From positions 16,060-80,059 of IMG/VR virus record IMGVR_UViG_3300046787_000286: a DNA stretch of 64,000 bases. One strand, 5' to 3'. Under the pieces are notes generated by a model, which ran no database searches, was not told the origin of the DNA, and was given only the letters and a program-made list of their open reading frames with translations. Made by a program: the position numbers and the translations under genes. This stretch comes from a virus. Every line of letters starts with the position of its first letter. Position 1 is the stretch's first letter. This document shows positions 1,627-59,811 of the stretch, piece after piece.

Positions 1627-1639
1627 TTAGGAATCAATA

Positions 1640-2614: not shown

Positions 2615-2630
2615 CCTAATTTAGGTTAAC

Positions 2631-2662: not shown

Positions 2663-2684
2663 ATCCTTCCTGTATACTGTTTAA

Positions 2685-2990
2685 ATGAATACTGAAAACA
2701 TTGTTGCACACGCACGAGCTCGGTTTGATCACGAGAGTGCAAAACGAGTACTTAAAGAAAAATACCAGGCCAAACTGATATTTGCCCACAACGGCGGCAT
2801 GTTTAGAGCAACTCCTGAACTGCTTGCATTTGTGCAAAGCTGGCCTATTGCCGAACTGTATATTGCAGACTTGTATAACAACCCAATTGAAGTAGACAAA
2901 CAAGTATTCCTAGTAAAGTTGCAGCAACACTACCATGAACAAATGAATGCTTGGCATGTAGAGTATACAGAAATGAGCAACAAACGATGA
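2685..2990 (+). CDS. hypothetical protein
   Basis: 101 aa ORF; its stop overlaps the next start as ATGA. Confidence 0.4.
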   Translation: MNTENIVAHARARFDHESAKRVLKEKYQAKLIFAHNGGMFRATPELLAFVQSWPIAELYIADLYNNPIEVDKQVFLVKLQQHYHEQMNAWHVEYTEMSNKR

Positions 2991-4559: not shown

Positions 4560-4899
4560 AACTACACAAAACTTACTGGATGTATTTGCCAACTTAGCGC
4601 CCTGGCAACCGCCTGTTGTATTTTGGAGATTGCATTACGGTGAAGTAGGAGAGCCATTGTTTTACACCCAGGAAGATAAACCAGGTAATTACATTGATGT
4701 AACGCCTGAGCAATACCAACGTGCTAGCATGCAAGTTAAGGTAGTTAACAGGAAGTTAGTAGAGCTGTCAACTAAACGTACACGCAAGTTGATGCCTAGT
4801 ACAACAGGAACTCCTTGCTATCTCTCTGATGTTAGCATTGTTGTTCCAACAACTGAACAGCACCAGTGCTGGAGATTAAAAACAAATGAAACAAATTGA
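4552..4899 (+). CDS. hypothetical protein
   Basis: 115 aa ORF in a translationally coupled series. Confidence 0.4.
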   Translation: MNETTQNLLDVFANLAPWQPPVVFWRLHYGEVGEPLFYTQEDKPGNYIDVTPEQYQRASMQVKVVNRKLVELSTKRTRKLMPSTTGTPCYLSDVSIVVPTTEQHQCWRLKTNETN

Positions 4900-5812: not shown

Positions 5813-5818
5813 CAGTTA

Positions 5819-17250: not shown

Positions 17251-17344
17251 AATGGATTAAAAATCTATGGGCAAGGATCACGTTAGAAATACGTTATCGT
17301 AAAAAACTAAAAGAACTACGTAAACGCGACCCATTTATCTACAA

Positions 17345-31456: not shown

Positions 31457-31485
31457 ATTATAGCAAATCGGGCATTATTGGTCAA
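31457..31485 (-). promoter_or_regulatory. sigma70-like promoter TTGACC-N17-TATAAT
   Basis: identical 31-nt core GTTGACCAATAATGCCCGATTTGCTATAATA also present at 34598 and 51223. Confidence 0.65.
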
Positions 31486-34090: not shown

Positions 34091-34116
34091 AGGTATCCTT
34101 TGTTGTGTTATGTGTT

Positions 34117-34145
34117 AGTATAGCAGATCACAATTTACTGGTCAA
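34117..34145 (-). promoter_or_regulatory. sigma70-like promoter TTGACC-N17-TATACT
   Basis: -10 at 34117-34122, -35 at 34140-34145, upstream of the vWA gene. Confidence 0.55.
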
Positions 34146-34149
34146 CGTA

Positions 34150-34563
34150 TTACTTGACTAATGCGTAGGGTTTATCCCAGCGGCCAATGTTGATGTCAAT
34201 GTAGTGCGAGCGATGAAAGTAATCTGTTTGGATGTCGCTGTGATCAAAGTAGTCTGGGCCTTTCATTGCCGCAACAATCTCAGTCAAAAACGTTTTAGCA
34301 ACACCGCTGAAGTGCTCGTGATACCAGTATGTGTTGACATCGATAGAGTTAGTAGCAGGTTGAAATGGCAAGTGTTCTGGGCGAGATTTTGCACCGCATA
34401 CTTGGTTGTAATTGCCAATGAAGTCGATGCCACCTTGCTGGATGTTAAGCACAAGGCTGGAGTGATGACGAACTGCAAGGCTAGCTTTGACACCGTACTT
34501 TTTGCAGATTGCTTTGATAGCTGGTGCCAATTTTGCTTTCATTTCCTGGGATACAAATGCCAT
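34150..34563 (-). CDS. hypothetical protein
   Basis: 137 aa ORF, promoter upstream. Confidence 0.45.
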   Translation of the reverse strand: MAFVSQEMKAKLAPAIKAICKKYGVKASLAVRHHSSLVLNIQQGGIDFIGNYNQVCGAKSRPEHLPFQPATNSIDVNTYWYHEHFSGVAKTFLTEIVAAMKGPDYFDHSDIQTDYFHRSHYIDINIGRWDKPYALVK

Positions 34564-34597
34564 CTCAAACTCCTGTTTTGTTGCTGTCTATGTGTAT

Positions 34598-34626
34598 ATT
34601 ATAGCAAATCGGGCATTATTGGTCAA
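34598..34626 (-). promoter_or_regulatory. sigma70-like promoter TTGACC-N17-TATAAT
   Basis: identical core to 31457..31485. Confidence 0.65.
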
Positions 34627-34661
34627 CCAAAAAGTGTAACTTAAAAAGTAGTACTAGAGTA

Positions 34662-34949
34662 TTACAAATTCAAGTACTTTAGCTGGAACCAGCTTTGTGC
34701 TTTGTCGTCAAAGAAATCTAGATGTACTTGGTCTTCGTAGTGCATGTTGGTACCATTATTAGTCTTGTGTTCGTTTGGTACGAGCCCTTGGTGGTAGCGA
34801 TATGTAAACCCAAGCTCACGTTTCATTCGCGGTCGCACTGCCATGCCCATGCCAAAGTCCCGGAGGATGCTTGCATAGATGTCTGACCACTCTCCAGGAT
34901 TGTGAAAGATGATTAGATGTTTTTTAACAGTGACTTTGCTCACGACCAT
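34662..34949 (-). CDS. small protein, WF.LK-motif paralog family
   Basis: C-terminal ..QSWFQLKYLNL. Confidence 0.4.
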   Translation of the reverse strand: MVVSKVTVKKHLIIFHNPGEWSDIYASILRDFGMGMAVRPRMKRELGFTYRYHQGLVPNEHKTNNGTNMHYEDQVHLDFFDDKAQSWFQLKYLNL

Positions 34950-35311
34950 CCACCGCCTAGCCGTTTCCAGGCCAGCCGTTGTTCCATTATTAATTTGAAC
35001 TTACGTGCTTCATCTTCTTTGATAAATTTGCAGCCAATAACCACATGATGATCTGATACGTATCGCGCGGCGCCTTCTTGATCTTGGAACCATGCAGCTT
35101 CGTTGAGATACATAGTTTCAAATTGGTCCGGCTTGTTGTATTCATGCACGCCGAGTATGGCCTCAACAACACCAATGTCATCAAACAAGATTGCCAACAA
35201 GTTTTTGGCTTTGTTTGCATTGTTTACAACAACCATTTCAAATCCAGGCCAGCTCACTGACCAGTGATTATCAGGCAAGTCTTTTAAAACAAAACGTTCT
35301 GTTACTTCCAT
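34940..35311 (-). CDS. small protein, paralog family (divergent)
   Basis: part of the tandem overlapping array. Confidence 0.35.
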   Translation of the reverse strand: MEVTERFVLKDLPDNHWSVSWPGFEMVVVNNANKAKNLLAILFDDIGVVEAILGVHEYNKPDQFETMYLNEAAWFQDQEGAARYVSDHHVVIGCKFIKEDEARKFKLIMEQRLAWKRLGGGWS

Positions 35312-35610
35312 TTTAACATCAACATGGTGTAAAGTTTTTCGTGCATGTCAAACACATTGAAGTGCATGTACCACTGCTTATCTATATGCTCGTGTCTGTG
35401 CCACATGTCGGGATCTTGTTCTTGCACCCAGCCACTAACTAGGCTAGGCTTACATTGTACTGTATACCAGGTTTCTCCGTCAACTTGGGCTTGATCCAAA
35501 ATGCGAATTGCTGGCGGGTTCGCTATGTCCATGTATGTGCTTTTGCCCGTTTGTTGAGCAGCCATTAGTGTAGTAATTTGGCCTTTACGCCATCCTGTTG
35601 CTGTGGTCAT
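35302..35610 (-). CDS. small protein, paralog family
   Basis: C-terminal ..YTMLMLKWK. Confidence 0.35.
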   Translation of the reverse strand: MTTATGWRKGQITTLMAAQQTGKSTYMDIANPPAIRILDQAQVDGETWYTVQCKPSLVSGWVQEQDPDMWHRHEHIDKQWYMHFNVFDMHEKLYTMLMLKWK

Positions 35611-35827
35611 CTAATAAGATTTCAAAAAGTGTTGCGTATTGTGTTTCGGGTTCCATGTGAAACCCTGAACCCCAAACTATCCATACCTTACGCTTATATG
35701 CCTGCTGCCAGCCAATACGTTGTCCTGTAATTGTCTTGCGTGGCCACATAACAAATGTCTTGGTCCAAGGATAACAATCTGCTCCATCGGTAATAATTTG
35801 TTTTATTTCCATCGTAACAAAAACCAA
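35585..35827 (-). CDS. small protein (array member)
   Basis: 80 aa. Confidence 0.3.
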   Translation of the reverse strand: MVFVTMEIKQIITDGADCYPWTKTFVMWPRKTITGQRIGWQQAYKRKVWIVWGSGFHMEPETQYATLFEILLDDHSNRMA

Positions 35828-36063
35828 TCACGGTCTGCTTCATTTCTAAACCAAAACTTAGCATTGTTTACATACCAACGACAGCTAGGTGTAAACACAC
35901 CATCTTTAGGAGTGGGACCAAATGTTTCTACACACCACGCAACCATGTTATTCCAAGTGTCAATCCCGCCCCAGTCACCGGCTGGATCCCAGTTGGGCAC
36001 TGGCTTCACAGTCCAGTACCTTGCACCAAATACTCGACCTTCGTTGATCTCAAATTGTCTCAT
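35803..36063 (-). CDS. small protein, paralog family
   Basis: C-terminal ..DRDWFLLRWK. Confidence 0.4.
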   Translation of the reverse strand: MRQFEINEGRVFGARYWTVKPVPNWDPAGDWGGIDTWNNMVAWCVETFGPTPKDGVFTPSCRWYVNNAKFWFRNEADRDWFLLRWK

Positions 36064-36323
36064 GAAAACTTCAGCGCAAATATTGTAGCATCCTCGTCGT
36101 CTTCAAACTCAACAAATTTGCCAGCCCAATCGGGTGCCATATAGGACGGCGCCTGGCAATTCTGTTTGCACCAGTAATGAATTTCGCCCCAGTTATATTT
36201 GGGGTTGTAAGTTGCTCTGTGCAATTTTGGCACTTTAAAAGTTGGATGTTCTTTCCAAGGGTAAGTGTATGTAATCATGCTGTTCCAAATTTTAATGCAA
36301 ACATTATAGCAGGCTGTTCCCAC
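36060..36323 (-). CDS. small protein, paralog family
   Basis: C-terminal ..EDDEDATIFALKFS. Confidence 0.4.
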   Translation of the reverse strand: MGTACYNVCIKIWNSMITYTYPWKEHPTFKVPKLHRATYNPKYNWGEIHYWCKQNCQAPSYMAPDWAGKFVEFEDDEDATIFALKFS

Positions 36324-36604
36324 TCGAACTGATATGTGACATATCCATTGTCAAACTCTCTAGTGTCTAAGTACCAACGCTGAAAGTAGCCTGTACCAGT
36401 TACTGGGTACGCTTCACACCATTCATATGCGCCTTCACAAGCATCACGGCGCAGCCGCACCTTGTAGCGAAAGTCTGGGTTTGATCGGCCGCCGCCACCG
36501 TAGAACTTTTCCATTAACTCCACCTCAAACAAAATGCAGTCAGAGTTGACGTATTGGGGAATACCACAGTCATTCCAACAAATGCAGAACCGTTGTCCCA
36601 GCAC
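36275..36604 (-). CDS. small protein, paralog family
   Basis: C-terminal ..QPAIMFALKFGTA. Confidence 0.4.
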   Translation of the reverse strand: MLGQRFCICWNDCGIPQYVNSDCILFEVELMEKFYGGGGRSNPDFRYKVRLRRDACEGAYEWCEAYPVTGTGYFQRWYLDTREFDNGYVTYQFEWEQPAIMFALKFGTA

Positions 36605-36723
36605 CAGTTTCGCAATTCAGTTTCATGATCTGCCCAGTAATGGAAGTCTGACAGTATAACCATTTGTTCGGCGTCAGTTAACACGCAAGGGACGACAATG
36701 AATCTCTCTTGAGTTGAAACCAT
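36514..36723 (-). CDS. small protein (array member)
   Basis: 69 aa. Confidence 0.25.
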   Translation of the reverse strand: MVSTQERFIVVPCVLTDAEQMVILSDFHYWADHETELRNWCWDNGSAFVGMTVVFPNTSTLTAFCLRWS

Positions 36724-36962
36724 GTTGCATCCTTGTGTGCTTTAAAGTATATGTCGCACCATTTGCGTTTAATAACAGCAGGAGCAGAGTCAAGCCATTC
36801 ATATCGTGTCCGATGAAACCATGTGCCTTTTCTAGTGCCACCTTTGCCAAATAAATTTTGTGCAAGTATTAGAGCATTAAACACATGCTCGTCATAATCT
36901 TTACGAGTCCACCATCCGTTGCCTTGTTCTTCTGCTAGTACACTAATTCTTGTAGACTTCAA
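36678..36962 (-). CDS. small protein, paralog family
   Basis: C-terminal ..KDATWFQLKRD. Confidence 0.4.
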   Translation of the reverse strand: MKSTRISVLAEEQGNGWWTRKDYDEHVFNALILAQNLFGKGGTRKGTWFHRTRYEWLDSAPAVIKRKWCDIYFKAHKDATWFQLKRDSLSSLAC

Positions 36963-36966
36963 TTGA

Positions 36967-37209
36967 TCAACCCCACTTTAATTTAAAGATCATAGCGTCC
37001 GAACTTTTTTCAAATGCAAATTTACGCATTGCAAAACTTCCAACCCAATGTCCACTACACCGGCTATTGCACCAAATAGTGAGTCCCATCCAACTTGTTG
37101 CCGCAGTATGTTCGTCTCCAGGCTCTAGCACAGTCCAGCCACGTTTGACAGCACCGCGCACACTCCGGGGATTTGACACTTTGTATGGTAAATGATATCC
37201 TCTAGACAT
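36967..37209 (-). CDS. small protein, paralog family
   Basis: C-terminal ..SSDAMIFKLKWG. Confidence 0.4.
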   Translation of the reverse strand: MSRGYHLPYKVSNPRSVRGAVKRGWTVLEPGDEHTAATSWMGLTIWCNSRCSGHWVGSFAMRKFAFEKSSDAMIFKLKWG

Positions 37210-37591
37210 TTGTTATATCAATTGGGTGAGACAACTGGAACCAACCAAGTTCTTTTTCACTGGCCAAGTAGATTCGATAGTCATTGTATTGCACAGAGTA
37301 AGCCCAATGCTGGTTGATGTCTTCATCTTGTACCACAGTATTAATTGGATCCATTCTGCGTTGTAACAAGTTGGAACGAGTCTCCACGTCTTGTGACCAA
37401 CCCCAATTAGTAGTCATCCAACGTCTAGAACGATCAAAGTCTAATACGCCAGTGCCTTTCCAGGTGCTTTTAGAAAACTCTAGCATATAAGCAAATTGAG
37501 CACACCAGCTATGTCGACGATCTAATTTAGTTACTTCGTATCTCATAATAAAGAAAAAGGCTGTGGGGGACACAGCCTGTGCAACCCCCAC
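37202..37591 (-). CDS. small protein, paralog family
   Basis: ..EKELGWFQLSHP. Confidence 0.4.
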   Translation of the reverse strand: MGVAQAVSPTAFFFIMRYEVTKLDRRHSWCAQFAYMLEFSKSTWKGTGVLDFDRSRRWMTTNWGWSQDVETRSNLLQRRMDPINTVVQDEDINQHWAYSVQYNDYRIYLASEKELGWFQLSHPIDITNV

Positions 37592-37602
37592 TGCCTTCTA
37601 GT

Positions 37603-38694
37603 TTAGGCCGAAGCCTGCAAAATGTACTTGCCGTACTTGTCGTGGAACTGATCAAAGTTCTTCAACTTGGTAGGCTGGAATGGCAAGTTGTATGTGGTAA
37701 GCGCAATACGAGCACCCATCACAACCAACTCAGTTTCAAAGTTCTTCATCATGTATGAGAAGAAGTTATCTGCCATTTCGTGGAACTTCTTAGAATCCAC
37801 TTTTGCTTCCACTGCACCCTTCAATTCGTAGCACATGGAAATCACCAGTGAGTACATCGCTGACACTTCCTTGACATTCAAGTCCATGACCTTGCCTGAC
37901 AAAATGTCTTCTGGCTTGGGCATGCGACCTGCAATCTTACGGTGAGCCATAAACTTCACAGCAAGACCTTCGCCAACAGTACCTGCAATCAAGTTGGTTG
38001 CTGTTTCGTCATCTACAGTTTCGTCATCCAACAGCTGGCTCACAAAGGTCCATGAACGTGGAGTAGCGAACGCCCGGCTTGCAGATTTTGCATCAAAGTC
38101 ATACAAGTCTTGCTTGGCAAAGCTCAAGTAACCCACAACGTCTTTGTTGATGTTGGCGTTAACGGCCCATTCTTGCCAGCTTGGGAAGTCAACACGCATT
38201 TCTTGGTGAACAAAACGGTTGCTCAACGGAGTTGGCATACGATATGTCACACCTTTGTCTGACTCACGGTTACCTGCGGCAACCATAACCACGTTGTCTG
38301 GCAACATATACTTGCCAATACGACGGTTCAAAATCAACTGATAAGCCGCAGATTGCACAGAAGGTGCAGCCGAGTTCATTTCGTCCAAGAACAACACCAC
38401 AACTGGGTATTGTGCGGCAGTTTCTGCGTCGGGCAAGTCAACTGGAGCTGCCCAGTCCATTTTGCCATTGTCTTTGTTGTAGAATGGGATACCACGAATG
38501 TCTGTGGGCTCCATCTGACCTAAACGCAAGTCATACATGATACCACCGAGGTCCTTGGTAATACCTTCAACAAGCTCTGACTTACCGATACCAGGAGGGC
38601 CCCACAAGAAGATTGGGCGTTTAACTTTGAAAGCCTGCAAAATGGATTTACGGGCTTGGACTGCGGTAACGGTACGTGCATCTGATACTGACAT
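37603..38694 (-). CDS. cobS: CobS-like AAA+ ATPase (MoxR/CbbQ family)
   Basis: Walker A GPPGIGKS, Walker B LFLDE; same size and architecture as the phage CobS proteins reported from cyanophages and pelagiphages. Confidence 0.75.
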   Translation of the reverse strand: MSVSDARTVTAVQARKSILQAFKVKRPIFLWGPPGIGKSELVEGITKDLGGIMYDLRLGQMEPTDIRGIPFYNKDNGKMDWAAPVDLPDAETAAQYPVVVLFLDEMNSAAPSVQSAAYQLILNRRIGKYMLPDNVVMVAAGNRESDKGVTYRMPTPLSNRFVHQEMRVDFPSWQEWAVNANINKDVVGYLSFAKQDLYDFDAKSASRAFATPRSWTFVSQLLDDETVDDETATNLIAGTVGEGLAVKFMAHRKIAGRMPKPEDILSGKVMDLNVKEVSAMYSLVISMCYELKGAVEAKVDSKKFHEMADNFFSYMMKNFETELVVMGARIALTTYNLPFQPTKLKNFDQFHDKYGKYILQASA

Positions 38695-41599: not shown

Positions 41600-42115
41600 T
41601 CAACTGTTTAGAACACGAGCAACACTAGTGATTACACTAGCAATCCGCCCGATATCGCGCAACTGCTCAACTGTGTAACCTTCTTGTTTTAAAGTCTCGT
41701 AGTGAGCCTTTACACAAAAATGGCACTTGCCTACAATACTCGCTGCCAAGCTGTATGCTTCGAATCGAGCTTTAGTTGTGCCGCCATGTGAACTAATAGC
41801 GTTCATGCGTAACTGGGCCGGCAAACCTTTTAAGTTCTCGTCATCGGCCATTTCGACATAGGGGTACCAGATGTTGTTTTGTGCCATGATCGAGCCGGCT
41901 GTTAGTGCAGCATCACGCTCTTTTGTGTCAACAATGCTGCTACTAATAAAAGTAATCAGTTTGCCGTTACCTGTTGCAAAGGCCGCAGCCAGTGCAATTG
42001 CTTCTGCTTCCTCTGGTGCCAAGGTACTGCGTTTGATCACAGCGTCAAGATTTAACTTGGTGTCCTTAGCATACTCAGGAAGACCTTCTTTAAGTTGGTC
42101 TACCCATGCAGTCAT
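41600..42115 (-). CDS. AhpD-like/carboxymuconolactone decarboxylase family protein (alkylhydroperoxidase D-like)
   Basis: CxxC..H-type core (GKCHFCVKAH); size matches; stop overlaps the peroxiredoxin gene. Confidence 0.55.
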   Translation of the reverse strand: MTAWVDQLKEGLPEYAKDTKLNLDAVIKRSTLAPEEAEAIALAAAFATGNGKLITFISSSIVDTKERDAALTAGSIMAQNNIWYPYVEMADDENLKGLPAQLRMNAISSHGGTTKARFEAYSLAASIVGKCHFCVKAHYETLKQEGYTVEQLRDIGRIASVITSVARVLNS

Positions 42116-42654
42116 TACAGAGTCTCCCCGCCTACTGTACGGTTACAAGCGCAAAGTTCGCCAGTCTGCAATGCGTCAAGAATACGCAGAGTTTCTTCTG
42201 GGCTACGGCCAACGTCCAAGTTGTTGACAGTAACGTGTTGGATAACGTTGTCCGGGTCAACGATGAATGTTGCGCGAAGTGCCGCACCTGCTGGCGCATA
42301 GAACACACCTAGTTGTTCGACCAAGCTCAACTCACCACGCTGTGTATCAGCAAACTGAGTGTGAGTAATTTTCTTCAAATCACTGTGTGCCATTTGCCAT
42401 GCTGTCTTACAGAACTCGTTGTCTGTTGAACCTGTTAGCAATACTGCATCGCGATCAGCAAAGTCACCAGTCAACTTATCGTAGGCCACAATTTCAGTTG
42501 GGCAAACGAATGTGAAGTCTTTTGGATAGAACACGATTACTTTCCATTTGCCTTCGAAGCTTTGGTCTGTAATTGTGAAGTATGCGTCTTCTGGTTGGCC
42601 TGGCTTAACTCCTGTGACTGCGAACGCTGTTAGTTTATCACCGATTGTTTTCAT
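42115..42654 (-). CDS. peroxiredoxin (AhpC/TSA family, 2-Cys)
   Basis: FTFVCPTEI peroxidatic Cys motif; resolving Cys near the C-terminus. Confidence 0.8.
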   Translation of the reverse strand: MKTIGDKLTAFAVTGVKPGQPEDAYFTITDQSFEGKWKVIVFYPKDFTFVCPTEIVAYDKLTGDFADRDAVLLTGSTDNEFCKTAWQMAHSDLKKITHTQFADTQRGELSLVEQLGVFYAPAGAALRATFIVDPDNVIQHVTVNNLDVGRSPEETLRILDALQTGELCACNRTVGGETL

Positions 42655-43093: not shown

Positions 43094-43468
43094 TTATCTT
43101 ATTGCTTTTGCTCTAGCGTGAATAACATCATCAACATTGCCTTTAACAATGACATTGGTGTAGGTGTCTACAAATTCGCTAGCATGATCTACCACACGAT
43201 TGTCAGGTTCGTGGTAGGTCCTAACTCGCTCGCTACCTGCTAGGTTGCGTTCCTTGTCTTTGTGGAAGTGTGCCTGAATGCGTGACAAGCAGGTAATGTA
43301 GGCTGCACGTTTGTTATCTTCGCGGCTACGGCTGTTAGTGCCGTTCGCTTGAATGCCAGTGGGCTCATGAATGCATCGGCAACAATTTTGATGCTTGTTA
43401 CGATGTTGCCCACCTTTGCCTGTTCCAGAGAACCACTCGTAACGAAATTGATCTTCTGTAATTTTCAT
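43094..43468 (-). CDS. peptidyl-tRNA hydrolase domain protein (ArfB/class I release factor-like, GGQ motif)
   Basis: SGTGKGGQHRNK...HEPTGIQANG; start moved to MKITEDQ so that it does not overlap the tRNA. Confidence 0.6.
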   Translation of the reverse strand: MKITEDQFRYEWFSGTGKGGQHRNKHQNCCRCIHEPTGIQANGTNSRSREDNKRAAYITCLSRIQAHFHKDKERNLAGSERVRTYHEPDNRVVDHASEFVDTYTNVIVKGNVDDVIHARAKAIR

Positions 43469-43824: not shown

Positions 43825-44052
43825 TTATCTAACTTTTTTAAGATACTCTGGACCGACTTTGCCGGCTTGCACTTCAAGTAATGCAGTAACTGAAGCATTC
43901 AACTGACCAGGATTTTCTGATCGTTTATGCCTGACAATAAGTTCACGCACTCTAGCAGATGCTGCGATTACTAAATCGAATCTGTTGCCAATTTGTTCAA
44001 CACAAGCGTCTGTATCAATTTGAGTTCCGCGACTTTCAGTGAGAATTTTCAT
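43825..44052 (-). CDS. hypothetical protein
   Basis: 75 aa ORF between tRNAs. Confidence 0.4.
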   Translation of the reverse strand: MKILTESRGTQIDTDACVEQIGNRFDLVIAASARVRELIVRHKRSENPGQLNASVTALLEVQAGKVGPEYLKKVR

Positions 44053-45103: not shown

Positions 45104-45526
45104 ATATTCTTTATATGTAAACACACTAAAACGCGACCTTAGTTTCCCAGTTACGGTATTGTCAGTTGGTATAATGTGTTTGCATATAAAGTGGCGGACT
45201 GAGAATACATCCTAACCTAGTAACACCTCGGACATTATTACAAACCTTGCGAGTCTGCTTTCTTCCGACTTCCACTAAAACCATATTGCTATGTATTCTA
45301 GTCTGTTACCAGTATCGCCGTTTTTAAAGACAGGCAGTAGTCTTGTCGTCACATGCTACTCTACACCATCTATCCCGTTGACCTTTAGAGCCATTCACTG
45401 TCGCTAAACAGCTACGAAACTTCCAGTATAAACAGATTTCACCTTGCGAGTTACGTCTGACTGTATTGCCTTGCGGCTACAGCATTAGATACTTTTCACA
45501 CATGACCGAGTCAGTCTTTGCATTTT

Positions 45527-45598
45527 AATCGTTAGCGGGAGTTGAACCCGCAGTCGACTCCTTAACAGGGAGTTGGCCTACCATTAGCCTATAACAAC
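45527..45598 (-). tRNA. tRNA-Asn (anticodon GTT), no encoded CCA
   Basis: GTTGTTA TA GGCT AATGGTA GGCC A ACTCC CTGTTAA GGAGT CGACT GCGGG TTCAACT CCCGC TAACGAT T. Confidence 0.65.
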
Positions 45599-46105
45599 CT
45601 ACTGCGATGTGCTGACTCAGTTGCTTCATACTCTTTTGGAATACAAAATACAACACACCACGTTCCTTTTGTCTTGCGAACTACTCAGACGTCTTTTGCG
45701 ATATGTGTCGGGTCTCGGCTTTCGCGTACCTCCACTTACCACTCAAACTGCATACGAGCCCTAGGGTGCAACCCCTCGGACAAATACACTACCCTTTCTC
45801 ATACCAATTAACTGGACTGGTTTCGTTGTGAAGTCAGCACCACCTGTTACTTTCCATCTACTCAAGTTCCCCTTGATGCAATCTCAGGCTTGTAAGCAAA
45901 CGTTCTTTCCACAACATCCAGCGTCATTGTTACAACCACCGGTCTTATCAGTGATCGCTCCCTTGCAGGAGTGAGCAGGCTTGCCTAAGTGAACTATTTT
46001 TAGTAGCGGAGTTATGTAGGCATACCTCCTTTGGCTGTGTCACCACAGTTATTCTTCACTAGATAGCAAGCTACCTAGTAGGACATTAAGCTGCCCTTAT
46101 ATTCT

Positions 46106-46164: not shown

Positions 46165-46240
46165 GCACACTTACAGGACTCGAACCTGACGACCAGGGCA
46201 ATAGCCCTAGCTATGAATCCAACCATATCAGCGTGGCCTA
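46165..46240 (-). other. tRNA-like element (T-arm CAGG-TTCGAGT-CCTG), unresolved
   Basis: canonical T-loop but I could not build an acceptor or anticodon stem. Confidence 0.25.
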
Positions 46241-46288
46241 CGCCTTTATGTGCATGTGTTTAAAGACTTTGTTACTGTCTAAGTATCT

Positions 46289-46332: not shown

Positions 46333-47541
46333 TTGGGTAAAGTGTTATATAAATATTCCACTATGAATAAATCTAAAACTTTTTGTATAGCCACTCATGT
46401 TTGTATGGCAGTACAAAACGAAGTTGACTACTGTTGTTGCAACGCCAACAAAGAAAGTTGGAAAACAAATGACCACCAAGTCATGCGTGTAAACGAACAC
46501 TCTCCCAAACAAGCCTGGAACAGCTATTCTCGTAAAATAATAAGAGAAGTATTAGATAATGGGCAACAACATCATTCGTGCCAGAAGTGTTGGGACATTG
46601 AGGCTGCTGGTAGCATAAGTCAACGTATGACATTGAATAATATGTTTGTTGATGTTGAGTTACTCAACGACCAACCGCAGATTATAATTATAAAACCCGG
46701 AAATACTTGTAATTTTGCATGCCGAATGTGCAATCCTGAAACTAGCTCAAGCTGGTATTCGGATGCATACAAATTAGAAAAATCTACTTTGCCCTTTTCC
46801 GAATACACTCGTAAGTTTGAAACTATACGAAACAGTTTTAACCGTGATAATGAAAATTTTTGGAATACCTTCAAACAGTGGTTGCCAACTATAAAGTACA
46901 TTGACATTTACGGCGGAGAACCATTCTTAGCTCCTGCATTGTTTGATCTACTAGAGCACGGAGTTAACATAGGTGCTGCAAAAGAAGTTTCTTTGCAACT
47001 GCATACAAATGCATCAATCATGAATCAACATTATCTTGATATTTTAAGTCAGTACAAAAAAGTTACCTGTAAAGTAAGTATTGATTCAAGTGATCCGAAG
47101 AAAAACGATTACATACGGCATCAAGGAAACTTTGATAAAACAATAGCTAATGCAAAATTATTCAAAACATTTTTTGATCAACATAAAAATTTAAATTTTG
47201 GAGTAACATACACACTTACGCCGTTGAATGTGTTCCATGTGGATCAAGATAAAGAACTTATTAGCGAACTATTAGAATTACCTAAAATAGATGTAAACAT
47301 AGTAACTACACCAGAATACGACATACGTCACTTACCGATTCCAGTTAAGGACTTTCTAATTAATAATATTAACGATAGCTCGGTGAACAATTTTCTAAAA
47401 CAAACTATACCAGGTTGCGACATTGAGTGGCCAAAATTCTGTAAAGTAACTGATGAGTTAGATGCCATACGCAACCAAAGTTTTGCCGAAACATTCCCCG
47501 AATGGTGGGAAATGCTCAAACCATACTGGGTGTCTCAATGA
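46333..47541 (+). CDS. radical SAM family protein, paralog 8 (isolated copy)
   Basis: PGNTCNFACRMCNP, IYGGEP, C-terminal FPEWW motif; N-terminal Cys cluster. Confidence 0.65.
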   Translation: MGKVLYKYSTMNKSKTFCIATHVCMAVQNEVDYCCCNANKESWKTNDHQVMRVNEHSPKQAWNSYSRKIIREVLDNGQQHHSCQKCWDIEAAGSISQRMTLNNMFVDVELLNDQPQIIIIKPGNTCNFACRMCNPETSSSWYSDAYKLEKSTLPFSEYTRKFETIRNSFNRDNENFWNTFKQWLPTIKYIDIYGGEPFLAPALFDLLEHGVNIGAAKEVSLQLHTNASIMNQHYLDILSQYKKVTCKVSIDSSDPKKNDYIRHQGNFDKTIANAKLFKTFFDQHKNLNFGVTYTLTPLNVFHVDQDKELISELLELPKIDVNIVTTPEYDIRHLPIPVKDFLINNINDSSVNNFLKQTIPGCDIEWPKFCKVTDELDAIRNQSFAETFPEWWEMLKPYWVSQ

Positions 47542-47979: not shown

Positions 47980-48471
47980 TTACGCTACTTGAGCATGCCC
48001 GCGAGCATTGCCTAAGCTACGGAAGCGATCAGCTGCATAAGAAGCTGCAAACGCTTGTGGCTTAACTAAGGGTTCAACGTTGCATACGCCACGTATGTAA
48101 CCGATAGCTTGGCTAACAACACAGCTTGAACCGTGCATTTCGTTAGGGTTAATATCCAAGTGAACTTCGACATCGCGACCTTCTAACACATCGGCTAACT
48201 TCAAATACAATGCTGACACTTTATAAACTTCAGTCATCAAGCGAGTGCTAGGACGGCTTGCACGTTGGTCATAATCGCGTTCGCGAGTTACTTCACCAAA
48301 CAGCTTACAACCGTGGTTGCCATCGATATGAACCACAATGACTGCTGTATAAACAGCATGCCATACGCCGTTGATTCTTGTACGTTCAGAGTCACAACCA
48401 ATATAAATTTTAGTTTCTAGACTTTGTTCTACTATGAAGTCACGGATTTCATCGATGTTAAATTTTGTCAT
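47980..48471 (-). CDS. hypothetical protein (possibly RNase H-like fold)
   Basis: 163 aa ORF. Confidence 0.35.
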   Translation of the reverse strand: MTKFNIDEIRDFIVEQSLETKIYIGCDSERTRINGVWHAVYTAVIVVHIDGNHGCKLFGEVTRERDYDQRASRPSTRLMTEVYKVSALYLKLADVLEGRDVEVHLDINPNEMHGSSCVVSQAIGYIRGVCNVEPLVKPQAFAASYAADRFRSLGNARGHAQVA

Positions 48472-48487: not shown

Positions 48488-48563
48488 TGGCGACCCCTGA
48501 TGGATTCGAACCACCGACACGCGGCTTTGGAGACCGCTGTTCTGCCAACTGAACTAAGGAGCC
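48488..48563 (-). tRNA. tRNA-Trp (anticodon CCA)
   Basis: GGCTCCT TA GTTC AGTTGGCA GAAC A GCGGT CTCCAAA GCCGC GTGTC GGTGG TTCGAAT CCATC AGGGGTC G CCA. Confidence 0.8.
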
Positions 48564-48568
48564 ATTTT

Positions 48569-48642
48569 TGGTAGCCTGTAGAGGTTACGATCCTCTGTCG
48601 CTCGATTATCAGTCGAGTGCTCTACCATTGAGCTAACGGGCT
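48569..48642 (-). tRNA. tRNA-Ile (anticodon GAT), atypical T-loop ATCGTAA
   Basis: anticodon arm CTCGA-CTGATAA-TCGAG; acceptor has one C:A mismatch. Confidence 0.55.
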
Positions 48643-48826
48643 ATTTTACTTTTACCTTTTGCAGGATATCTTTTCGCATCAAAAAGATTCTTGGGGAATT
48701 CTCTTGATGCACTGCAATATACTCTACCCCATCTATCCACTGGGAGAGTTTTGTGTTATCACATACAACACGTTCGCGATTTAGTTTATTCTCAAATGTC
48801 ACGGGTTTCATCTCCTCCTCCCTTCA

Positions 48827-48901
48827 TGGCCGGTCCTGCAGGAATCGAACCCACATCTCCAAGTTCGAAGCATGGCATTCTATCCATTGAACTAAGGACC
48901 G
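48827..48901 (-). tRNA. tRNA-Arg (anticodon TCG)
   Basis: acceptor CGGTCCT/AGGACCG, anticodon loop CTTCGAA, T:T mismatch in the anticodon stem. Confidence 0.65.
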
Positions 48902-48908
48902 AAAATTA

Positions 48909-49085
48909 ATTACCTTCTAACTGCTCTATTTTATCGGCAGCTTCTTCAAGTAAGTCAGCAATGCGATCGGGCTTGCCCTCTTCTACACTCTTGCGTCCTT
49001 GAATCTGTCGCCTAATCTCTGCTCGCTTACGCAAGCGAAAGACTAGGCTTTGTTCACTAACAGGTAGATGACTTTCGTCAATCAT
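48909..49085 (-). CDS. small ORF (58 aa) coupled to the RNA ligase gene
   Basis: ATG overlaps the ligase stop; charged helical peptide. Confidence 0.25.
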
Positions 49086-49987
49086 ACTGTTTCCATATAG
49101 TTACGTACCCACTCTAAACGAGCTTGCTCGTCCATAGCAGTATACTCAACAATGTTAGCACGGATAGCATCCACTAGTGGATAGTATTCTTCGTCTAGTT
49201 GGTGCTTGATGTCTTTGTTCAAGTCTACTAACTTGTCTGTACGTGGATTGCGAGCAACCCACTTTGAAGTCAAGTAGTATGGTGACTTGATTTTAGCACT
49301 CACACCTTCGTTAGTGTAGAATACAAAACCTTCGTGCTTGCATTCCTTTGCTAAGTTCTTCAATGCAGCCATTGAAGTTGTTACACTTTCTGGCTTGTGA
49401 CAGTTAAACAACAATGCTAAGTCTTGCAACACACATGGATCGTGCCCCACTTTAGATCCAAACTCGTTTTCGCGATAGCCTAAAACATACATGCCTGCCT
49501 TCTCTGGAACGATATGAGGGTCACTTGGGTGAACACACTCGAACATCACAGTCATACCGTCTAGTTCATCGTCACAAAATGCTATACGCCAATCAGCTAA
49601 AGAACCATGAGTCAACATCATTTCTTTTGCCAGGTCAACGTATGGGCTGTCAGTGCTACCTGTAGTAGAAACTAGCACGTCGCCGTTATACCAAGTTATA
49701 GCAACCATAAAGCCGTTGACCTTACGATATGCTAGCACTTCTGTATCGTCGGCCAGCACTGGTGCTTCCTTTTCGATACCGTAGTTGTAGATCTTTGTGA
49801 ATGGATATGACACTAGGTTGAAATCCTTGTCCACAATAGACCCACGACATTCAGCAATGTATTCATTCCACAGGTTATCGTAGAACACTTTCTTCTTGTA
49901 CTTTAGCACGTAGATACCGTCGCCGGCTTCCTTCATGTTAACCAAGTTAGAAGTAGCTACATACTCCTTCAACTCATCTTTAAACAT
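49082..49987 (-). CDS. ATP-dependent RNA ligase-like protein
   Basis: nucleotidyltransferase motifs: KVNG (motif I-like), EGFVF (motif IV), AKIKSPYY (motif V); start placed at MFKDEL, which overlaps the kinase stop. Confidence 0.55.
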   Translation of the reverse strand: MFKDELKEYVATSNLVNMKEAGDGIYVLKYKKKVFYDNLWNEYIAECRGSIVDKDFNLVSYPFTKIYNYGIEKEAPVLADDTEVLAYRKVNGFMVAITWYNGDVLVSTTGSTDSPYVDLAKEMMLTHGSLADWRIAFCDDELDGMTVMFECVHPSDPHIVPEKAGMYVLGYRENEFGSKVGHDPCVLQDLALLFNCHKPESVTTSMAALKNLAKECKHEGFVFYTNEGVSAKIKSPYYLTSKWVARNPRTDKLVDLNKDIKHQLDEEYYPLVDAIRANIVEYTAMDEQARLEWVRNYMETV

Positions 49988-50441
49988 ACCAAATTTCCTT
50001 AAAGCCTTCTTCTTCAGTTGGCATTTCAAAATTGTTAATCATTGAACGCATAACGTTCTCCGGAATTGCCTTACCTGGTCGGCTAGCTAATCGACGTTCG
50101 TGTTCTTCCTTTTCGGGAGTACGAAACACAACAGCAATCTTTTCATAGTTAGACAAAATTGCCAACTTAGACTTGCGAGATTTTGCGCTAGTATTAGTTT
50201 GATCCCAAATACAATCTACTTGGTTCGCGTGGCAAACTCGTGCTTGATTGTCCATCAACTTCATTGCAATAGGCGCATATTCTTTGAACACTTCGTTGTA
50301 AGTTTTACCTACACGTTCTGCATGCTCGTCAATAAAACGATCGCTAGAGATAACCGGAACACCATCAGTCCAATTTTGTGCTTTGATCCAAGTGCTCTTA
50401 CCTGAACCTGGCACACCAATTAACATGTAAACTTTTGGCAT
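49980..50441 (-). CDS. P-loop polynucleotide kinase-like protein
   Basis: MLIGVPGSGKST Walker A; 153 aa. Confidence 0.55.
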   Translation of the reverse strand: MPKVYMLIGVPGSGKSTWIKAQNWTDGVPVISSDRFIDEHAERVGKTYNEVFKEYAPIAMKLMDNQARVCHANQVDCIWDQTNTSAKSRKSKLAILSNYEKIAVVFRTPEKEEHERRLASRPGKAIPENVMRSMINNFEMPTEEEGFKEIWYV

Positions 50442-50450
50442 AATTACTCC

Positions 50451-50993
50451 TTAGTGGTGAGCTCGAATCTCACCTTTTAATGCGTCTGCAATCATGTCGT
50501 CCATGTTGCTAACCACACGACCTGTTGCGTCAAAAGCTACATCACGGGCACGATACTTTTCCATGCCAGTCTTTGCACCATGTACATGACCGTAGAAGTG
50601 AACACTACCACGATGCATTTGGTCCCACTCCCAGATAGGGTAGTGCAACATGATAACAATTTGACCTTCATGGTTGTAACGCAAGTACTGATGCACTTCC
50701 TTAAACTCTGCACGGAATGCAGGGTCATTCAACAACTTGCGGTCATGATTGCCTTCAACCAAAATCTTACTACCATTCAACCGGCGCAAGATATCCACTG
50801 CGTCTTTTGCTGGCAAGAAAGCAAAGTCACCCAAGATGAATGTTTCATCTTCTGGCGCAACACTTGCGTTCCATTCTTTAATCATCTTTTCTCGCATGTC
50901 AGCCACATCAGTGAAGCCTGCCCGAGTTACTGGGCAAAACTTCATAATGTTTGCGTGACCAAAATGCAAGTCACTTGTAATCCATTTTGTCAT
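50451..50993 (-). CDS. calcineurin-like metallophosphoesterase
   Basis: SDLHFGH, GDFAF, GNHD motifs. Confidence 0.7.
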   Translation of the reverse strand: MTKWITSDLHFGHANIMKFCPVTRAGFTDVADMREKMIKEWNASVAPEDETFILGDFAFLPAKDAVDILRRLNGSKILVEGNHDRKLLNDPAFRAEFKEVHQYLRYNHEGQIVIMLHYPIWEWDQMHRGSVHFYGHVHGAKTGMEKYRARDVAFDATGRVVSNMDDMIADALKGEIRAHH

Positions 50994-50995: not shown

Positions 50996-51193
50996 TTATT
51001 CTCCGATGTATTCACGAACCCAATCAAAGTGAGCTTCGTCTGCTTTAACCCACTTGAACTGTTCTCGACGACGGTTGATTTTGTCAAAGTCAAAACAGAT
51101 AAAGATCCAGCCCTTGTCCTCTGAGAACATGACGGTATTTTGGACTTTGACAATCTGTACGATTTTGTCTTTCATCTTTGCTACTATCATCAT
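50996..51193 (-). CDS. hypothetical protein
   Basis: 65 aa ORF, promoter upstream. Confidence 0.35.
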   Translation of the reverse strand: MMIVAKMKDKIVQIVKVQNTVMFSEDKGWIFICFDFDKINRRREQFKWVKADEAHFDWVREYIGE

Positions 51194-51222: not shown

Positions 51223-51251
51223 ATTATAGCAAATCGGGCATTTTTGGTCAA
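51223..51251 (-). promoter_or_regulatory. sigma70-like promoter TTGACC-N17-TATAAT
   Basis: -10 at 51223-51228, -35 at 51246-51251; same core as 31457 and 34598. Confidence 0.6.
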
Positions 51252-51271: not shown

Positions 51272-51754
51272 TTACACATCGCCTTCGCGGGTTGGACTAT
51301 CTTCTAATCCCCACTCAACGCCATTGATTGTGTGGGGCTCTGCTTCGTCATAAGTCCAACCCAGCGCCTTCATCATCTTGTGCTTGACAAGTAAGTTAGG
51401 ACTACGAAATGCTTCAGTGTCATCAAAGCCTAACATTACCCCAATTTCTGCAACTGCACCCGAACGGCACACTCCTGCGTGGCAATGAACAATAACGTTC
51501 ATGCGTTGACCGTATGCTTTGAGCAACAAGTCAACCAATTGCTTGGCCTGTTCATCTGTGCATTTGCATTCGTCTGGAAAGTTATCTTTGTCCTCAGCAT
51601 CCAAGAATTCAAACTGATGAACTTCACGGAATTCATACTTGGGAACAGGAAACTCGTATGCTGGATCTACAATCTGAATCAGCATAGAGTTAATGCCGGG
51701 GGTAATATGAAACCCTTGACGAATGTCACTCATGCTTACATTTTGAATCCACAT
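51272..51754 (-). CDS. dual-specificity/protein-tyrosine phosphatase
   Basis: HCHAGVCRSG CX5R active-site signature. Confidence 0.7.
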   Translation of the reverse strand: MWIQNVSMSDIRQGFHITPGINSMLIQIVDPAYEFPVPKYEFREVHQFEFLDAEDKDNFPDECKCTDEQAKQLVDLLLKAYGQRMNVIVHCHAGVCRSGAVAEIGVMLGFDDTEAFRSPNLLVKHKMMKALGWTYDEAEPHTINGVEWGLEDSPTREGDV

Positions 51755-51755: not shown

Positions 51756-51800
51756 AAAAATCTCCTTTAATGCGTTATTATAACACTAAAGGAGATTTTG
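51756..51800 (-). terminator. hairpin with flanking A/T runs (terminator at the end of the tRNA cluster)
   Basis: aaatctcctttaa...ttaaaggagattt. Confidence 0.4.
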
Positions 51801-51830
51801 GTCAAGTACTACCTTAGTACTACTTTTGTT

Positions 51831-51905
51831 TGGTACCTGGTGACGGTTTCGAACCGCCGACCCGCTGCGTGTAAAGCAGCCGCTCTCCCCCTGAGCTAAC
51901 CAGGC
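51831..51905 (-). tRNA. tRNA-Val (anticodon TAC)
   Basis: GCCTGGT TA GCTC AGGGGGA GAGC G GCTGC TTTACAC GCAGC GGGTC GGCGG TTCGAAA CCGTC ACCAGGT A CCA. Confidence 0.8.
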
Positions 51906-52174: not shown

Positions 52175-52549
52175 TTAACAAGGTATCGAACTTAGTTCAT
52201 CTACCTGCTGCCTAGTAATATAATGAACTTTTTTACCGTCCATAATACTTATAGGCATATAAACTACTCTATCTATGTCTGACAGATAAACTGCCCAACA
52301 GTCGATTAAATCTCTATTAATAGCAACACCCTTCCCGTTTACCATAGAAGATGCTGCTATTTCATATCTATCACCTCTTCCCGGTGATCTATATTTTATT
52401 TGCAATCTAAACAATCTACCCTCTGAATCAACTGCTATACAGTCAACTGGATTATAGTCATCAAACGGTGTAAACGCGGTAAATCCTTTGGTGTATAAGT
52501 CTCCTATAACTTTAATAAGTCCTAGGTTGCCTTTTTCATTAACATTCAT
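52175..52549 (-). CDS. PD-(D/E)xK-type nuclease-like protein (Hjc/restriction-fold)
   Basis: D..(V)D.E...RLQIK motif; sits between tRNA genes and has its own promoter. Confidence 0.4.
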   Translation of the reverse strand: MNVNEKGNLGLIKVIGDLYTKGFTAFTPFDDYNPVDCIAVDSEGRLFRLQIKYRSPGRGDRYEIAASSMVNGKGVAINRDLIDCWAVYLSDIDRVVYMPISIMDGKKVHYITRQQVDELSSIPC

Positions 52550-53639: not shown

Positions 53640-53730
53640 CATTGTAGGCAGGGCTCGAACCTGCACACAGTCCTTACGGATAATGTCGCCCCTATAACGG
53701 GGCAATGTCTACCAATTCCATCACTACGAG
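53640..53730 (-). other. tRNA-like element (T-arm GCAGG-TTCGAGC-CCTGC plus GCCCC hairpin), unresolved
   Basis: T-arm is clear but acceptor pairing is not. Confidence 0.25.
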
Positions 53731-54659: not shown

Positions 54660-54770
54660 TAGGAGCGGTGGGAATTGAACCCACGTTAACTGCCTTATCT
54701 AGACAGTGCTTACGGCTGTATAAGGGCCGCCCTTAGGCCAACATTAGCAACACTCCCATTGAAAAACACA
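54660..54770 (-). other. tRNA-like element ~110 nt (T-arm GTGGG-TTCAATT-CCCAC, CCA), class II-like or disrupted
   Basis: possible acceptor GGGAGTG/CGCTCCT, but I found no canonical anticodon arm. Confidence 0.3.
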
Positions 54771-55317: not shown

Positions 55318-55393
55318 GGCCCCGGAGGGAGGAATCGAACCTCCATTGGTTGTATACGGACCGTGTTACCATTACACTACAACCGGGATATAG
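55318..55393 (-). other. pseudo-tRNA/tRNA-like element (canonical D and T arms, no anticodon stem, ends CCT)
   Basis: GTGT-AATGGTA-ACAC and GGAGG-TTCGATT-CCTCC arms, but the middle does not fold. Confidence 0.3.
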
Positions 55394-59328: not shown

Positions 59329-59361
59329 CGCCTTGCAAGTTACTTACGTTGACACAAAAGG

Positions 59362-59390
59362 TAAAAAAGAATGCCCGCCGAAACGGGCAT
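59362..59390 (-). terminator. intrinsic terminator of the tmRNA gene
   Basis: ATGCCCG-UUUCGG-CGGGCAU followed by UCUUUUUU on the minus strand. Confidence 0.65.
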
Positions 59391-59776
59391 GGTTGTTTAG
59401 GTTACAAGGTAAGTCCTACCCCGGGTGCATGGGTTATTAAGCCAATACAGCAGCACGACGAGCGATTTTTACACCGCGAGCGTTGATAGCTACTTCACCT
59501 TTTGTATTTGCGTTTGCATTTACGTTTTTTTGCGTCTACGGCCGAGTTCCCCCAACCCTACGGCTTCTGCTTTGCCGAGCTGTCCACTTGTTTACTTGTT
59601 GCCCTGTCGAAACCATGGCAGGCCCATTATAAAACACACTATTCCGTTATCCCACGTCTAGAACGATAACTGGGGCTCCGTAGAGCTAATGTGTTTTATG
59701 GTGGACCTGGCGGGAGTCGAACCCGCGTCCAGAACACTTTTCTCTTTGCTTCTTTCCTTACGGTTTTTACAGCAAT
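59365..59776 (-). ncRNA. ssrA: circularly permuted (two-piece) tmRNA gene: acceptor piece (~59699-59776) - intervening hairpin - coding piece (~59365-59625) with tag reading frame 59440..59517
   Basis: 3' acceptor/T-arm GGACGCGGGTTCGACTCCCGCCAGGTCCACCA is nearly identical to the E. coli tmRNA 3' end. Downstream of it on the RNA lie GGGCCUGCCAUGGUUUCGACAGGG (5' acceptor/P2-like), resume codon GCA, the frame ANANTKGEVAINARGVKIARRAAVLA, and UAAUAA. Confidence 0.8.
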
Positions 59777-59782
59777 ACAACA

Positions 59783-59811
59783 ATTATATATGACTTCTTT
59801 TAAAAAGTCAA
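59783..59811 (-). promoter_or_regulatory. sigma70 consensus promoter TTGACT-N17-TATAAT driving ssrA
   Basis: -10 at 59783-59788, -35 at 59806-59811, minus strand. Confidence 0.7.

Follow-up and report, generated by a model that had tools for sequence, protein, structure and literature searches.

The closest described relatives of the locus reported here are RNA repair systems of phages, bacteria and eukaryotes. Bacteriophage T4 encodes both Pnkp and the RNA ligase Rnl1, which counter the anticodon nuclease PrrC by 3′ healing, 5′ phosphorylation and ATP-dependent sealing of the broken RNA. Defenses that cleave tRNA are widespread and include PrrC, RloC, PARIS, retron-associated nucleases and Cas13. 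To our knowledge, RNA repair by phages has been shown experimentally for T4-type enzymes only. In bacteria, the Pnkp–Hen1 system of Clostridium thermocellum and the Pnkp1–Rnl–Hen1 system of Capnocytophaga gingivalis combine kinase, metallophosphoesterase and ligase activities. Trl1, the tRNA ligase of fungi and plants, combines three functions in one protein, among them that of a 2H-type cyclic phosphodiesterase, and depends on a 2′-phosphate at the junction, which is later removed by Tpt1. In this study, a candidate RNA repair cassette was analyzed in a 64,000-nucleotide stretch of viral DNA (hereafter the window; positions 16,060 to 80,059 of IMG/VR record IMGVR_UViG_3300046787_000286). Three co-directional minus-strand open reading frames (ORFs) fill positions 49082–50993 of the window and encode a metallophosphoesterase, a P-loop kinase and an RNA ligase. 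We consider it probable that they belong to a phage module for healing and sealing RNA ends, which is preceded by a predicted strong promoter of the host type and probably shares its transcript with phage tRNAs.

A first-pass annotation, made by reading the sequence, had described these ORFs as a cassette of three adjacent, overlapping genes, and all three were confirmed at their proposed positions. Overlap holds for the kinase and ligase genes, as the ligase gene, with its start codon at 49987, overlaps the end of the kinase gene and its stop codon by 8 nucleotides (ATGTTTAA); the phosphoesterase and kinase genes do not overlap and are separated by 9 nucleotides. Reading of the sequence places a GGAG ribosome-binding site ahead of the phosphoesterase ATG at 50993 and an AGGAG, which lies inside the 9-nucleotide gap, ahead of the kinase ATG at 50441, and suggests translational coupling between the cassette genes. 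For the ligase, the ATG at 49987 is the most likely start codon, rather than the TTG at 50029 given in a mechanical ORF list, and the resulting 301-amino-acid product is identical to a database protein (P0001) from a 214-kb JGI metagenome contig. In profile searches, all three products matched the families that had been predicted for them, and not unrelated ones.

The ligase (49082–49987, minus strand) was assigned to the Rnl1/Trl1 clade of ATP-dependent RNA ligases by Pfam and PHROG matches, motifs and a structural model. It scored 50.5 bits against the Pfam family RNA_lig_T4_1 (PF09511; gathering cut-off 28.3) and matched PHROG 562 with an E value of 4e-52, and the KVNG, EGFVF and KIK motifs from which a nucleotidyltransferase-type ligase had been proposed are all present. 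An exhaustive HMMER comparison with 1.84 billion cluster representatives retrieved 2994 related clusters, of which 258 had E values below 1e-30; these are mostly stand-alone proteins of about 300 amino acids. In an alignment of 103 homologues, 33–75% identical to the query, residues K29, R48, G49, K65, K89, G92, E150, H158, E219, G220, K232 and K234 are invariant. A single-sequence phmmer search of the PDB with the ligase returned noise only, and the profile built from the 103 homologues was needed to match T4 Rnl1 (E value 4.7e-18). In the profile alignment, K89-V-N-G is aligned with K99-E-D-G of T4 Rnl1 (K89 with K99, the motif I lysine, and G92 with G102), R48 with R54, K65 with K75, E150 with E159, E219-G220 with E227-G228, and K232 and K234 with K240 and K242. 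These T4 Rnl1 residues are reportedly essential according to mutagenesis by the Shuman laboratory. K89 is the predicted adenylylation site of the ligase.

An AlphaFold (AF2) model of the ligase was obtained with a predicted local distance difference test score (pLDDT) of 95.5 and a predicted template-modeling score (pTM) of 0.91. Foldseek searches with this model placed T4 Rnl1 at the top (E value 2e-13), and the fit to Trl1 was at least as good as that to T4 Rnl1, with a sequence identity to Trl1 of just 15%. In the model, the part after motif V is a short four-helix module of about 65 amino acids (residues ~236–300), whereas T4 Rnl1 carries a tRNA-specificity domain of about 120 amino acids; the profile alignment to T4 Rnl1 in the PDB ends at T4 residue 250. 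Because the ligase fits Trl1 at least as well as T4 Rnl1, it may by analogy share the need of Trl1 for a 2′-phosphate, which one of the phosphatases of the cassette may later remove.

The kinase (49980–50441, minus strand, 153 amino acids) matched Pfam AAA_33 with an E value of 7.5e-19, in agreement with the small P-loop kinase of the first-pass annotation. When a profile of its clade was compared with the PDB, the best matches were Pnkp1 (6e-9) and L-seryl-tRNA(Sec) kinase (PSTK; 8e-8), followed by CthPnk (4e-7), T4 Pnk (6.5e-6) and mammalian PNKP (2.4e-5); the top matches are polynucleotide or tRNA kinases only, and the closest, or nearly the closest, relatives of solved structure are the kinase domains of Pnkp1 and CthPnk. 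Its relatives retain without exception the P-loop (G9-x4-G14-K15-S16-T17), D34 and, in the lid, R117, R121 and K124. By sequence, the kinase falls within the polynucleotide 5′-hydroxyl kinase clade, and it is proposed to act as a 5′-OH RNA kinase. Compared to T4 Pnk, to whose kinase domain it is related, it is a stand-alone protein that lacks the HAD (DxDxT) 3′-phosphatase domain, and 3′ healing in the window is instead assigned to the metallophosphoesterase, with or without a cysteine phosphatase encoded nearby. A kinase without a 3′-phosphatase domain has also been noted in Pakpunavirus (PMC12846349).

The third protein (50451–50993, minus strand, 180 amino acids) had been proposed to be a calcineurin-type phosphoesterase, and this assignment stood. 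It matched PHROG 547 ("phosphoesterase") with an E value of 7e-48 and the structure of Aquifex aq_1665 (PDB 1xm7) with E values of 8e-10 as a single sequence and 1.7e-22 as a profile, 1xm7 being the only solved relative found in the PDB by the profile search. A Pfam scan at E≤0.01 gave no match to this protein, including to Metallophos. The metal ligands D8-x-H10, G55-D56, G81-N82-H83, H117 and G135-H136-x-H138 are kept in 66 relatives, and all motifs of the binuclear site are kept across phage families. This aq_1665-clade binuclear metallophosphoesterase is proposed, from its gene neighborhood only, to be an end-healing enzyme for 2′,3′-cyclic phosphate or 3′-phosphate.

Protein fusions and gene neighborhoods were used to evaluate whether these genes are functionally linked. 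Ligase homologues with 37–40% identity carry an N-terminal AAA_33 kinase in the same polypeptide in five cases (P0122, P0154, P0169, P0209 and P0245) and form part of kinase–Metallophos–ligase fusions, in the domain order of Pnkp, in three further proteins (P0218, P0244 and P0264). In P0260, the ligase is fused to a second, N4BP2-like kinase subfamily; the unannotated N-terminus of this protein had been considered as an aq_1665-type phosphoesterase, a candidate that was rejected when the region was found to be this second kinase. In IMG/VR, 80 loci encode a ligase 75–92% identical to that of the window, and in about 80 related metagenomic loci the trio keeps within a few kb, although its order is shuffled. 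Neighborhoods were counted in 32 loci from IMG/VR and additional contigs in which the sequence extends for 4 kb or more beyond the ligase in both directions, and genes within 6 kb of the ligase were scored. The phosphoesterase was found near the ligase in 32 of the 32 loci and the kinase in 23. All module genes lie on the strand of the ligase, in ten different gene orders.

Furthermore, six cultured phage lineages, namely Acidovorax ACP17, Ralstonia RSP15, phi92-like PHB05, Pakpunavirus JG004, Vequintavirus (rV5-like) FFH2 and Thalassavirus Chester, encode an orthologue of the aq_1665-type phosphoesterase within 3.5 kb of an orthologous ligase. These phosphoesterases are 31–40% identical to that of the window in alignments, and the ligases 32–47%. 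A P-loop "ATPase" usually lies beside the ligase in these lineages and an HD phosphohydrolase often does so. Collectively, the sequence comparisons support functional linkage by three independent lines for the kinase and the ligase and by two for the phosphoesterase.

RNA-repair neighborhoods of phages have already been described by comparative genomics, including those of some jumbo phages in which calcineurin-like or HD phosphatases take the place of the usual HAD phosphatase (PMC9503650, PMC7824862). The cassette of the window is of this already known, computationally predicted kind, for which no biochemical tests were found in the literature searched on the neighborhoods of cultured phages. 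Most of the cultured phages use the N4BP2-like kinase subfamily, unlike the window, and their neighborhoods are often tied to Sir2 or NAD-salvage genes, whereas the cassette of the window lies inside a large tRNA array. For example, genes for ribose-phosphate pyrophosphokinase and nicotinamide phosphoribosyltransferase adjoin the phosphoesterase/ligase region in JG004 (L087), PHB05 (L003), Chester (L089) and Stab20 (L090), and a Sir2-like gene lies beside it in FFH2 (L088). The gene content suggests that an anti-defense island joining RNA repair and NAD+ salvage is shared in cultured phages.

The first-pass annotation had called the cassette a split Pnkp. As a functional analogy this is supported, since the window and the bacterial systems share the same set of activities, and in Pnkp1–Rnl–Hen1 the ligase is likewise a separate polypeptide (PMC4411300). 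As an evolutionary origin it was rejected by fold and clade tests of the ligase and the phosphoesterase. Three tested features place the cassette outside the Pnkp family: its activities are not joined in one polypeptide, and its ligase and its phosphoesterase each belong to another clade. Bacterial Pnkp (TIGR04075) is a single trifunctional polypeptide of about 850 amino acids, whereas the window has one activity per polypeptide; the kinase is the sole cassette protein to match this model, with 36.4 bits against a cut-off of 750. The phosphoesterase is of the aq_1665 type in the window and of the lambda-phosphatase type in bacterial Pnkp. Pfam scans detected no methyltransferase among the neighboring ORFs that could correspond to Hen1, although no search aimed at Hen1 was run over the window as a whole.

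The repair unit is larger than the three genes originally noted. The trio is linked as proposed, and a DSP-type cysteine phosphatase and a 59-amino-acid protein travel with it, being found near the ligase in 28 and 32 of the 32 loci, respectively. The phosphatase (51272–51754, minus strand, 160 amino acids) has a DSP/PTP fold and is a conserved neighbor of the cassette. Its matches to the Pfam families DSPc, PTP-SAK and Tc-R-P are weak and all below the gathering scores, and its P-loop HCxAGxCRSG (H90, C91, R97 and S98) is invariant in sets of 58 and of 37 relatives; D52 is a candidate general acid. An AF2 model (pLDDT 84) has a generic VH1/DUSP fold, and Foldseek searches with it returned VH1/DUSP structures (E values 6e-5 to 1e-3, template-modeling scores of about 0.5), with no tie to known RNA phosphatases. 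The gene moves with the module, even to its other side (L027, L084 and L085).

The 59-amino-acid arginine-rich protein, orf59 (48906–49085, minus strand), has a start codon that overlaps the ligase stop codon (ATGA). In this protein an invariant helix rich in arginine (RLRKRAEIRR) precedes an acidic one, and its sequence is 75–94% identical across relatives, which makes it better conserved than the phosphoesterase, the kinase and the DSP-type phosphatase. Codon differences between relatives are mostly synonymous (1690 synonymous versus 745 non-synonymous), indicating that orf59 is a real protein under purifying selection. It had no match in Pfam or PHROG and is proposed to be an RNA-binding or ligase-accessory subunit. 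The idea that it corresponds to the C-terminal extension of longer ligase homologues was rejected, as no match was found even at E≤10. Both orf59 and the DSP-type phosphatase are single-copy in the window and specific to this metagenomic clade; neither was found elsewhere in the window or beside the ligase in other phage families, including the cultured phages described above.

Two further genes are less constant. The small ORF orf65 (50996–51193, minus strand), directly upstream of the phosphoesterase gene, has 16 distinct homologues and is conserved in only a subset of relatives, and its membership in the module is uncertain. The order found in the window (DSP-type phosphatase, orf65, phosphoesterase, kinase, ligase, orf59) also occurs in three other loci (L007, L022 and L023). 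An HD_4 phosphohydrolase is frequent in relatives (16 of 32 loci) and is absent from the window. The tight association of the DSP-fold phosphatase and orf59 with the module in this clade appears to be undescribed, as does the identity of the partner phosphoesterase as a member of the uncharacterized aq_1665 family.

The placement of the cassette in a tRNA region, noted from the start, was borne out. It is flanked by tRNA-Val(tac) at 51831–51905 and tRNA-Arg(tcg) at 48827–48901, and the region from 43 to 61 kb contains, according to ARAGORN, 37 tRNA genes, two of which are atypical, together with a tmRNA gene. All of these are on the minus strand, and no tRNA gene was reported as split or intron-containing. 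Genes for tRNA-Arg(tcg), tRNA-Ile(gat) and tRNA-Trp(cca) (48488–48901, minus strand) begin 4 nucleotides past the stop codon of orf59. Megablast comparison of the cassette and of the 40–64 kb part of the window with cultured phages found only short tRNA matches; the phage is without a close cultured relative. In the related clade, whose contigs reach 367 kb, tRNA arrays lie within 10 kb and on the same strand in 12 of the 15 loci scanned.

Two near-consensus promoters of the sigma-70 type were predicted upstream of the cassette genes. The first (51777–51805, minus strand; TTGACC-17-TATAAT with a TG element) precedes the gene for the DSP-type phosphatase and has 11 of 12 consensus matches. The second (51223–51251, minus strand; TTGACC-17-TATAAT with an upstream TG) lies 30 nucleotides upstream of orf65 and belongs to an almost exact copy of a sequence cassette of about 50 nucleotides that also occurs at 34598–34626 and 31457–31485. 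These calls are predictions from consensus match. No terminator-like site was found on the minus strand between the second promoter and the downstream tRNAs, and the cassette is, as far as the sequence can be read, probably co-transcribed with tRNA-Arg, tRNA-Ile and tRNA-Trp. Across 31097–61172, 13 exact TTGACN-(16–18)-TATAAT promoter-like sites were found, all on the minus strand, and those at 51251, 34626 and 31485 share the near-identical ~50-nucleotide cassette TTGACCAA(A/T)AATGCCCGATTTGCTATAATATACACATA.

The tRNA island contains additional RNA and translation-related genes. A full-length GOLLD RNA (Rfam RF02032; 45196–45661, minus strand; 197.6 bits, gathering score 150, model positions 1–416) encloses tRNA-Asn(gtt) at 45526–45599. 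A permuted two-piece tmRNA lies at 59346–59791 (minus strand; Rfam RF04321 with 91 bits at 59469–59753), for which ARAGORN gives the tag peptide ANANTKGEVAINARGVKIARRAAVLA. An RF-1-domain protein resembling ArfB and peptidyl-tRNA hydrolase (43130–43465, minus strand; PF00472, E value 1e-13) and an Rpb6/omega-like RNA polymerase protein (43828–44046, minus strand; PF01192, E value 2e-8) are encoded among the tRNA genes, and a related 332-kb contig encodes PTH2, RF-1-domain and eIF-1A-like proteins. This theme of translation protection fits a counter-defense role, as context rather than proof.

Some tRNA-like genes of the island are unusual. Those at 46165–46253 and 53640–53730 (both minus strand) are given a 2-nucleotide "anticodon" by ARAGORN and fold as class-II-like cloverleaves with 6-nucleotide anticodon loops, and the Rfam tRNA model made no call on them; Rfam gave two extra weak tRNA-like matches at 54660–54757 and 55320–55386. 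In relatives, the arrays include long tRNA-Ile(tat) genes and a tRNA whose anticodon is CUA, which was called tRNA-Pyl and may be an amber suppressor, and such unusual tRNAs of one or the other kind are located at 4290–4365 of L023, 490–583 of L004 and 167–258 of L051.

Taken together, these observations are consistent with the following mechanism. The aq_1665-type metallophosphoesterase would open the 3′-terminal phosphate, remove it or both, leaving a 3′-OH, and the neighboring DSP-type cysteine phosphatase may assist in this step, as may the HD phosphohydrolase in relatives. The P-loop kinase would phosphorylate the 5′-OH end, and the ligase, adenylylated at K89, would pass AMP to the resulting 5′-phosphate and seal the break. 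As an obligate companion of the ligase, orf59 may be a subunit that binds RNA or confers specificity. Sequence homology strongly indicates the steps of the ligase and the kinase, and we infer from the setting the substrates of the two phosphatases, the role of orf59 and tRNA as the target. Likewise, the genomic context points to the role that the first-pass annotation had suggested, the mending of tRNAs broken by anticodon nucleases of the host.

A more elaborate version of this module would be a system of five to six components, distinct to this abundant clade of large, uncultivated phages, in which the DSP-type phosphatase, as a new kind of RNA-end phosphatase, and orf59, as a detachable RNA-targeting subunit, are integral. 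In such a system, the phosphatase could remove the 2′- or 3′-phosphate left after the metallophosphoesterase opens a cyclic phosphate, or the 2′-phosphate at the junction if the ligase, whose best structural match is Trl1, resembles it in requiring one, and orf59 could stand in for the missing half of the C-terminal tRNA-specificity domain of T4 Rnl1. We hold this version as tentative and on the doubtful side.

Several observations weigh against the assignment of the cassette to RNA end repair. The ligase scored 37.1 bits against TIGR02308, the equivalog model of T4 RnlA, for which the cut-off is 242, and it did so over the nucleotidyltransferase region only; it is therefore not a full-length equivalent of T4 Rnl1, and sequence and model together place it in the Rnl1/Trl1 clade as a compact enzyme, with a C-terminal module half as long as the tRNA-specificity domain of T4 Rnl1. 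The arginine that follows the catalytic aspartate in T4 and C. thermocellum Pnk (D-x-x-R) is not conserved in relatives of the kinase, and in 9 of the 32 related loci the kinase is not within 6 kb of the ligase. A literature search on aq_1665, COG4186 and 1XM7 found no biochemical work and no measured activity, and the PDB holds this clade as a structural-genomics entry only. The remaining points concern the metallophosphoesterase and bear on a narrower repair unit: the kinase and the ligase might be the only repair pair, with the metallophosphoesterase and the DSP-type phosphatase as independent early or anti-defense enzymes that share an island of auxiliary genes and, for example, hydrolyze immune signals derived from nucleotides or ADP-ribose, or other phosphoesters. 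The phosphoesterase family is the wider one, occurring in 1564 phage records compared with 674 for the ligase, and Kayvirus and Pecentumvirus (Herelleviridae) and some Vibrio phages have it with no such ligase nearby, so that a role independent of the ligase exists or is possible. In addition, the phosphoesterase domain of the fusion proteins is of the lambda-phosphatase/CthPnkp type (P0218 against 4j6o, E value 7e-16), and P0218 has no specific similarity to the phosphoesterase of the window and is not orthologous to it. The NAD-salvage genes in JG004, Stab20, PHB05 and Chester and the resemblance of the DSP model to generic protein or lipid DUSPs also agree with the narrower unit. However, the phosphoesterase stays within 3.5 kb of the ligase despite extensive reshuffling, in all 32 related loci and all six ligase-bearing cultured lineages examined; moreover, an ATP-dependent ligase requires a 3′-OH, and no other 3′-healing enzyme (HAD, 2H or HD) was found in the window. 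On this balance we regard a kinase–ligase pair with unrelated phosphatases as unlikely.

The module might also mature or remodel RNAs of the phage itself, such as tRNA transcripts, the permuted tmRNA or GOLLD RNA, for example by joining or circularizing pieces. Probable co-transcription with the tRNAs is compatible with this, as is the presence in the island of the permuted tmRNA, of the GOLLD RNA with its embedded tRNA and of the two tRNA-like genes with 6-nucleotide loops. Permuted tmRNAs, however, function as two unligated pieces, and ARAGORN reported neither intron-containing nor split tRNA genes. In addition, the trio is present in the ACP17 and PHB05 loci, in which no tRNA genes occur in the roughly 4 kb to either side of the ligase (in a scan of cultured loci that left out JG004, FFH2 and Chester), and 3 of the 15 clade relatives scanned have no tRNA within 10 kb. 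Such a role in maturation is improbable. Action on DNA ends, as in the bacterial ligase-associated PdeM systems, or a ligase that serves mainly as a catalyst of tail-fiber attachment, as T4 gp63 does, is very improbable indeed. The phosphoesterase matches the NCBIfam model PdeM weakly (E value 0.0016; 17.9 bits, cut-off 150), whereas the kinase groups with RNA and tRNA kinases, and the genes lie in a tRNA island with early promoters and not among structural genes. PHROG 562 and many GenBank records bear the name "RNA ligase and tail fiber protein attachment catalyst", but this name was carried over from the annotation of T4 gp63 and comes from no test of this ligase subfamily. We therefore favor a module for healing and sealing RNA ends.

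Other genes in the window are of interest in their own right. Amid the tRNA genes lie an RNaseH_like protein (47980–48471, minus strand; PF04308/DUF458, E value 2.5e-16; PHROG 11311) and a PD-(D/E)XK endonuclease (52175–52549, minus strand; PF11645, E value 9e-12), and genes of these kinds recur near the module in some relatives (L036 for the former; L010, L029 and L034 for the latter). A plus-strand block at 337–18826 encodes many radical SAM/SPASM enzymes and a carbamoyltransferase (17345–18826). Distant matches in phages were confined to radical SAM genes, those of Vibrio phage nt-1-like and Ralstonia jumbo phages. Another radical SAM gene (46333–47541, plus strand) sits within the tRNA island, on the strand opposite to that of the tRNA genes. 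Auxiliary genes that are unusual in a phage encode an AhpC-type peroxiredoxin and an AhpD/CMD-like protein (41600–42654, minus strand), and a MoxR-type AAA ATPase and a DUF2201 metallopeptidase/VWA protein (32783–38694, minus strand).

For the window itself, the outcome is chiefly a sound annotation and holds no surprise. Beyond the window, the cassette is part of a very common alternative toolkit, in which a compact Rnl1/Trl1-type ligase is combined with a stand-alone polynucleotide kinase and an aq_1665-type metallophosphoesterase. The ligase of this toolkit is present in 674 cultured phage genomes and thousands of metagenomic clusters. The compact ligase could also serve as a reagent. If the phosphoesterase is the 3′-healing enzyme, this would provide a function for a structural-genomics orphan family found in more than 1500 phage genomes and would explain how repair is completed in phages whose kinase lacks a phosphatase.

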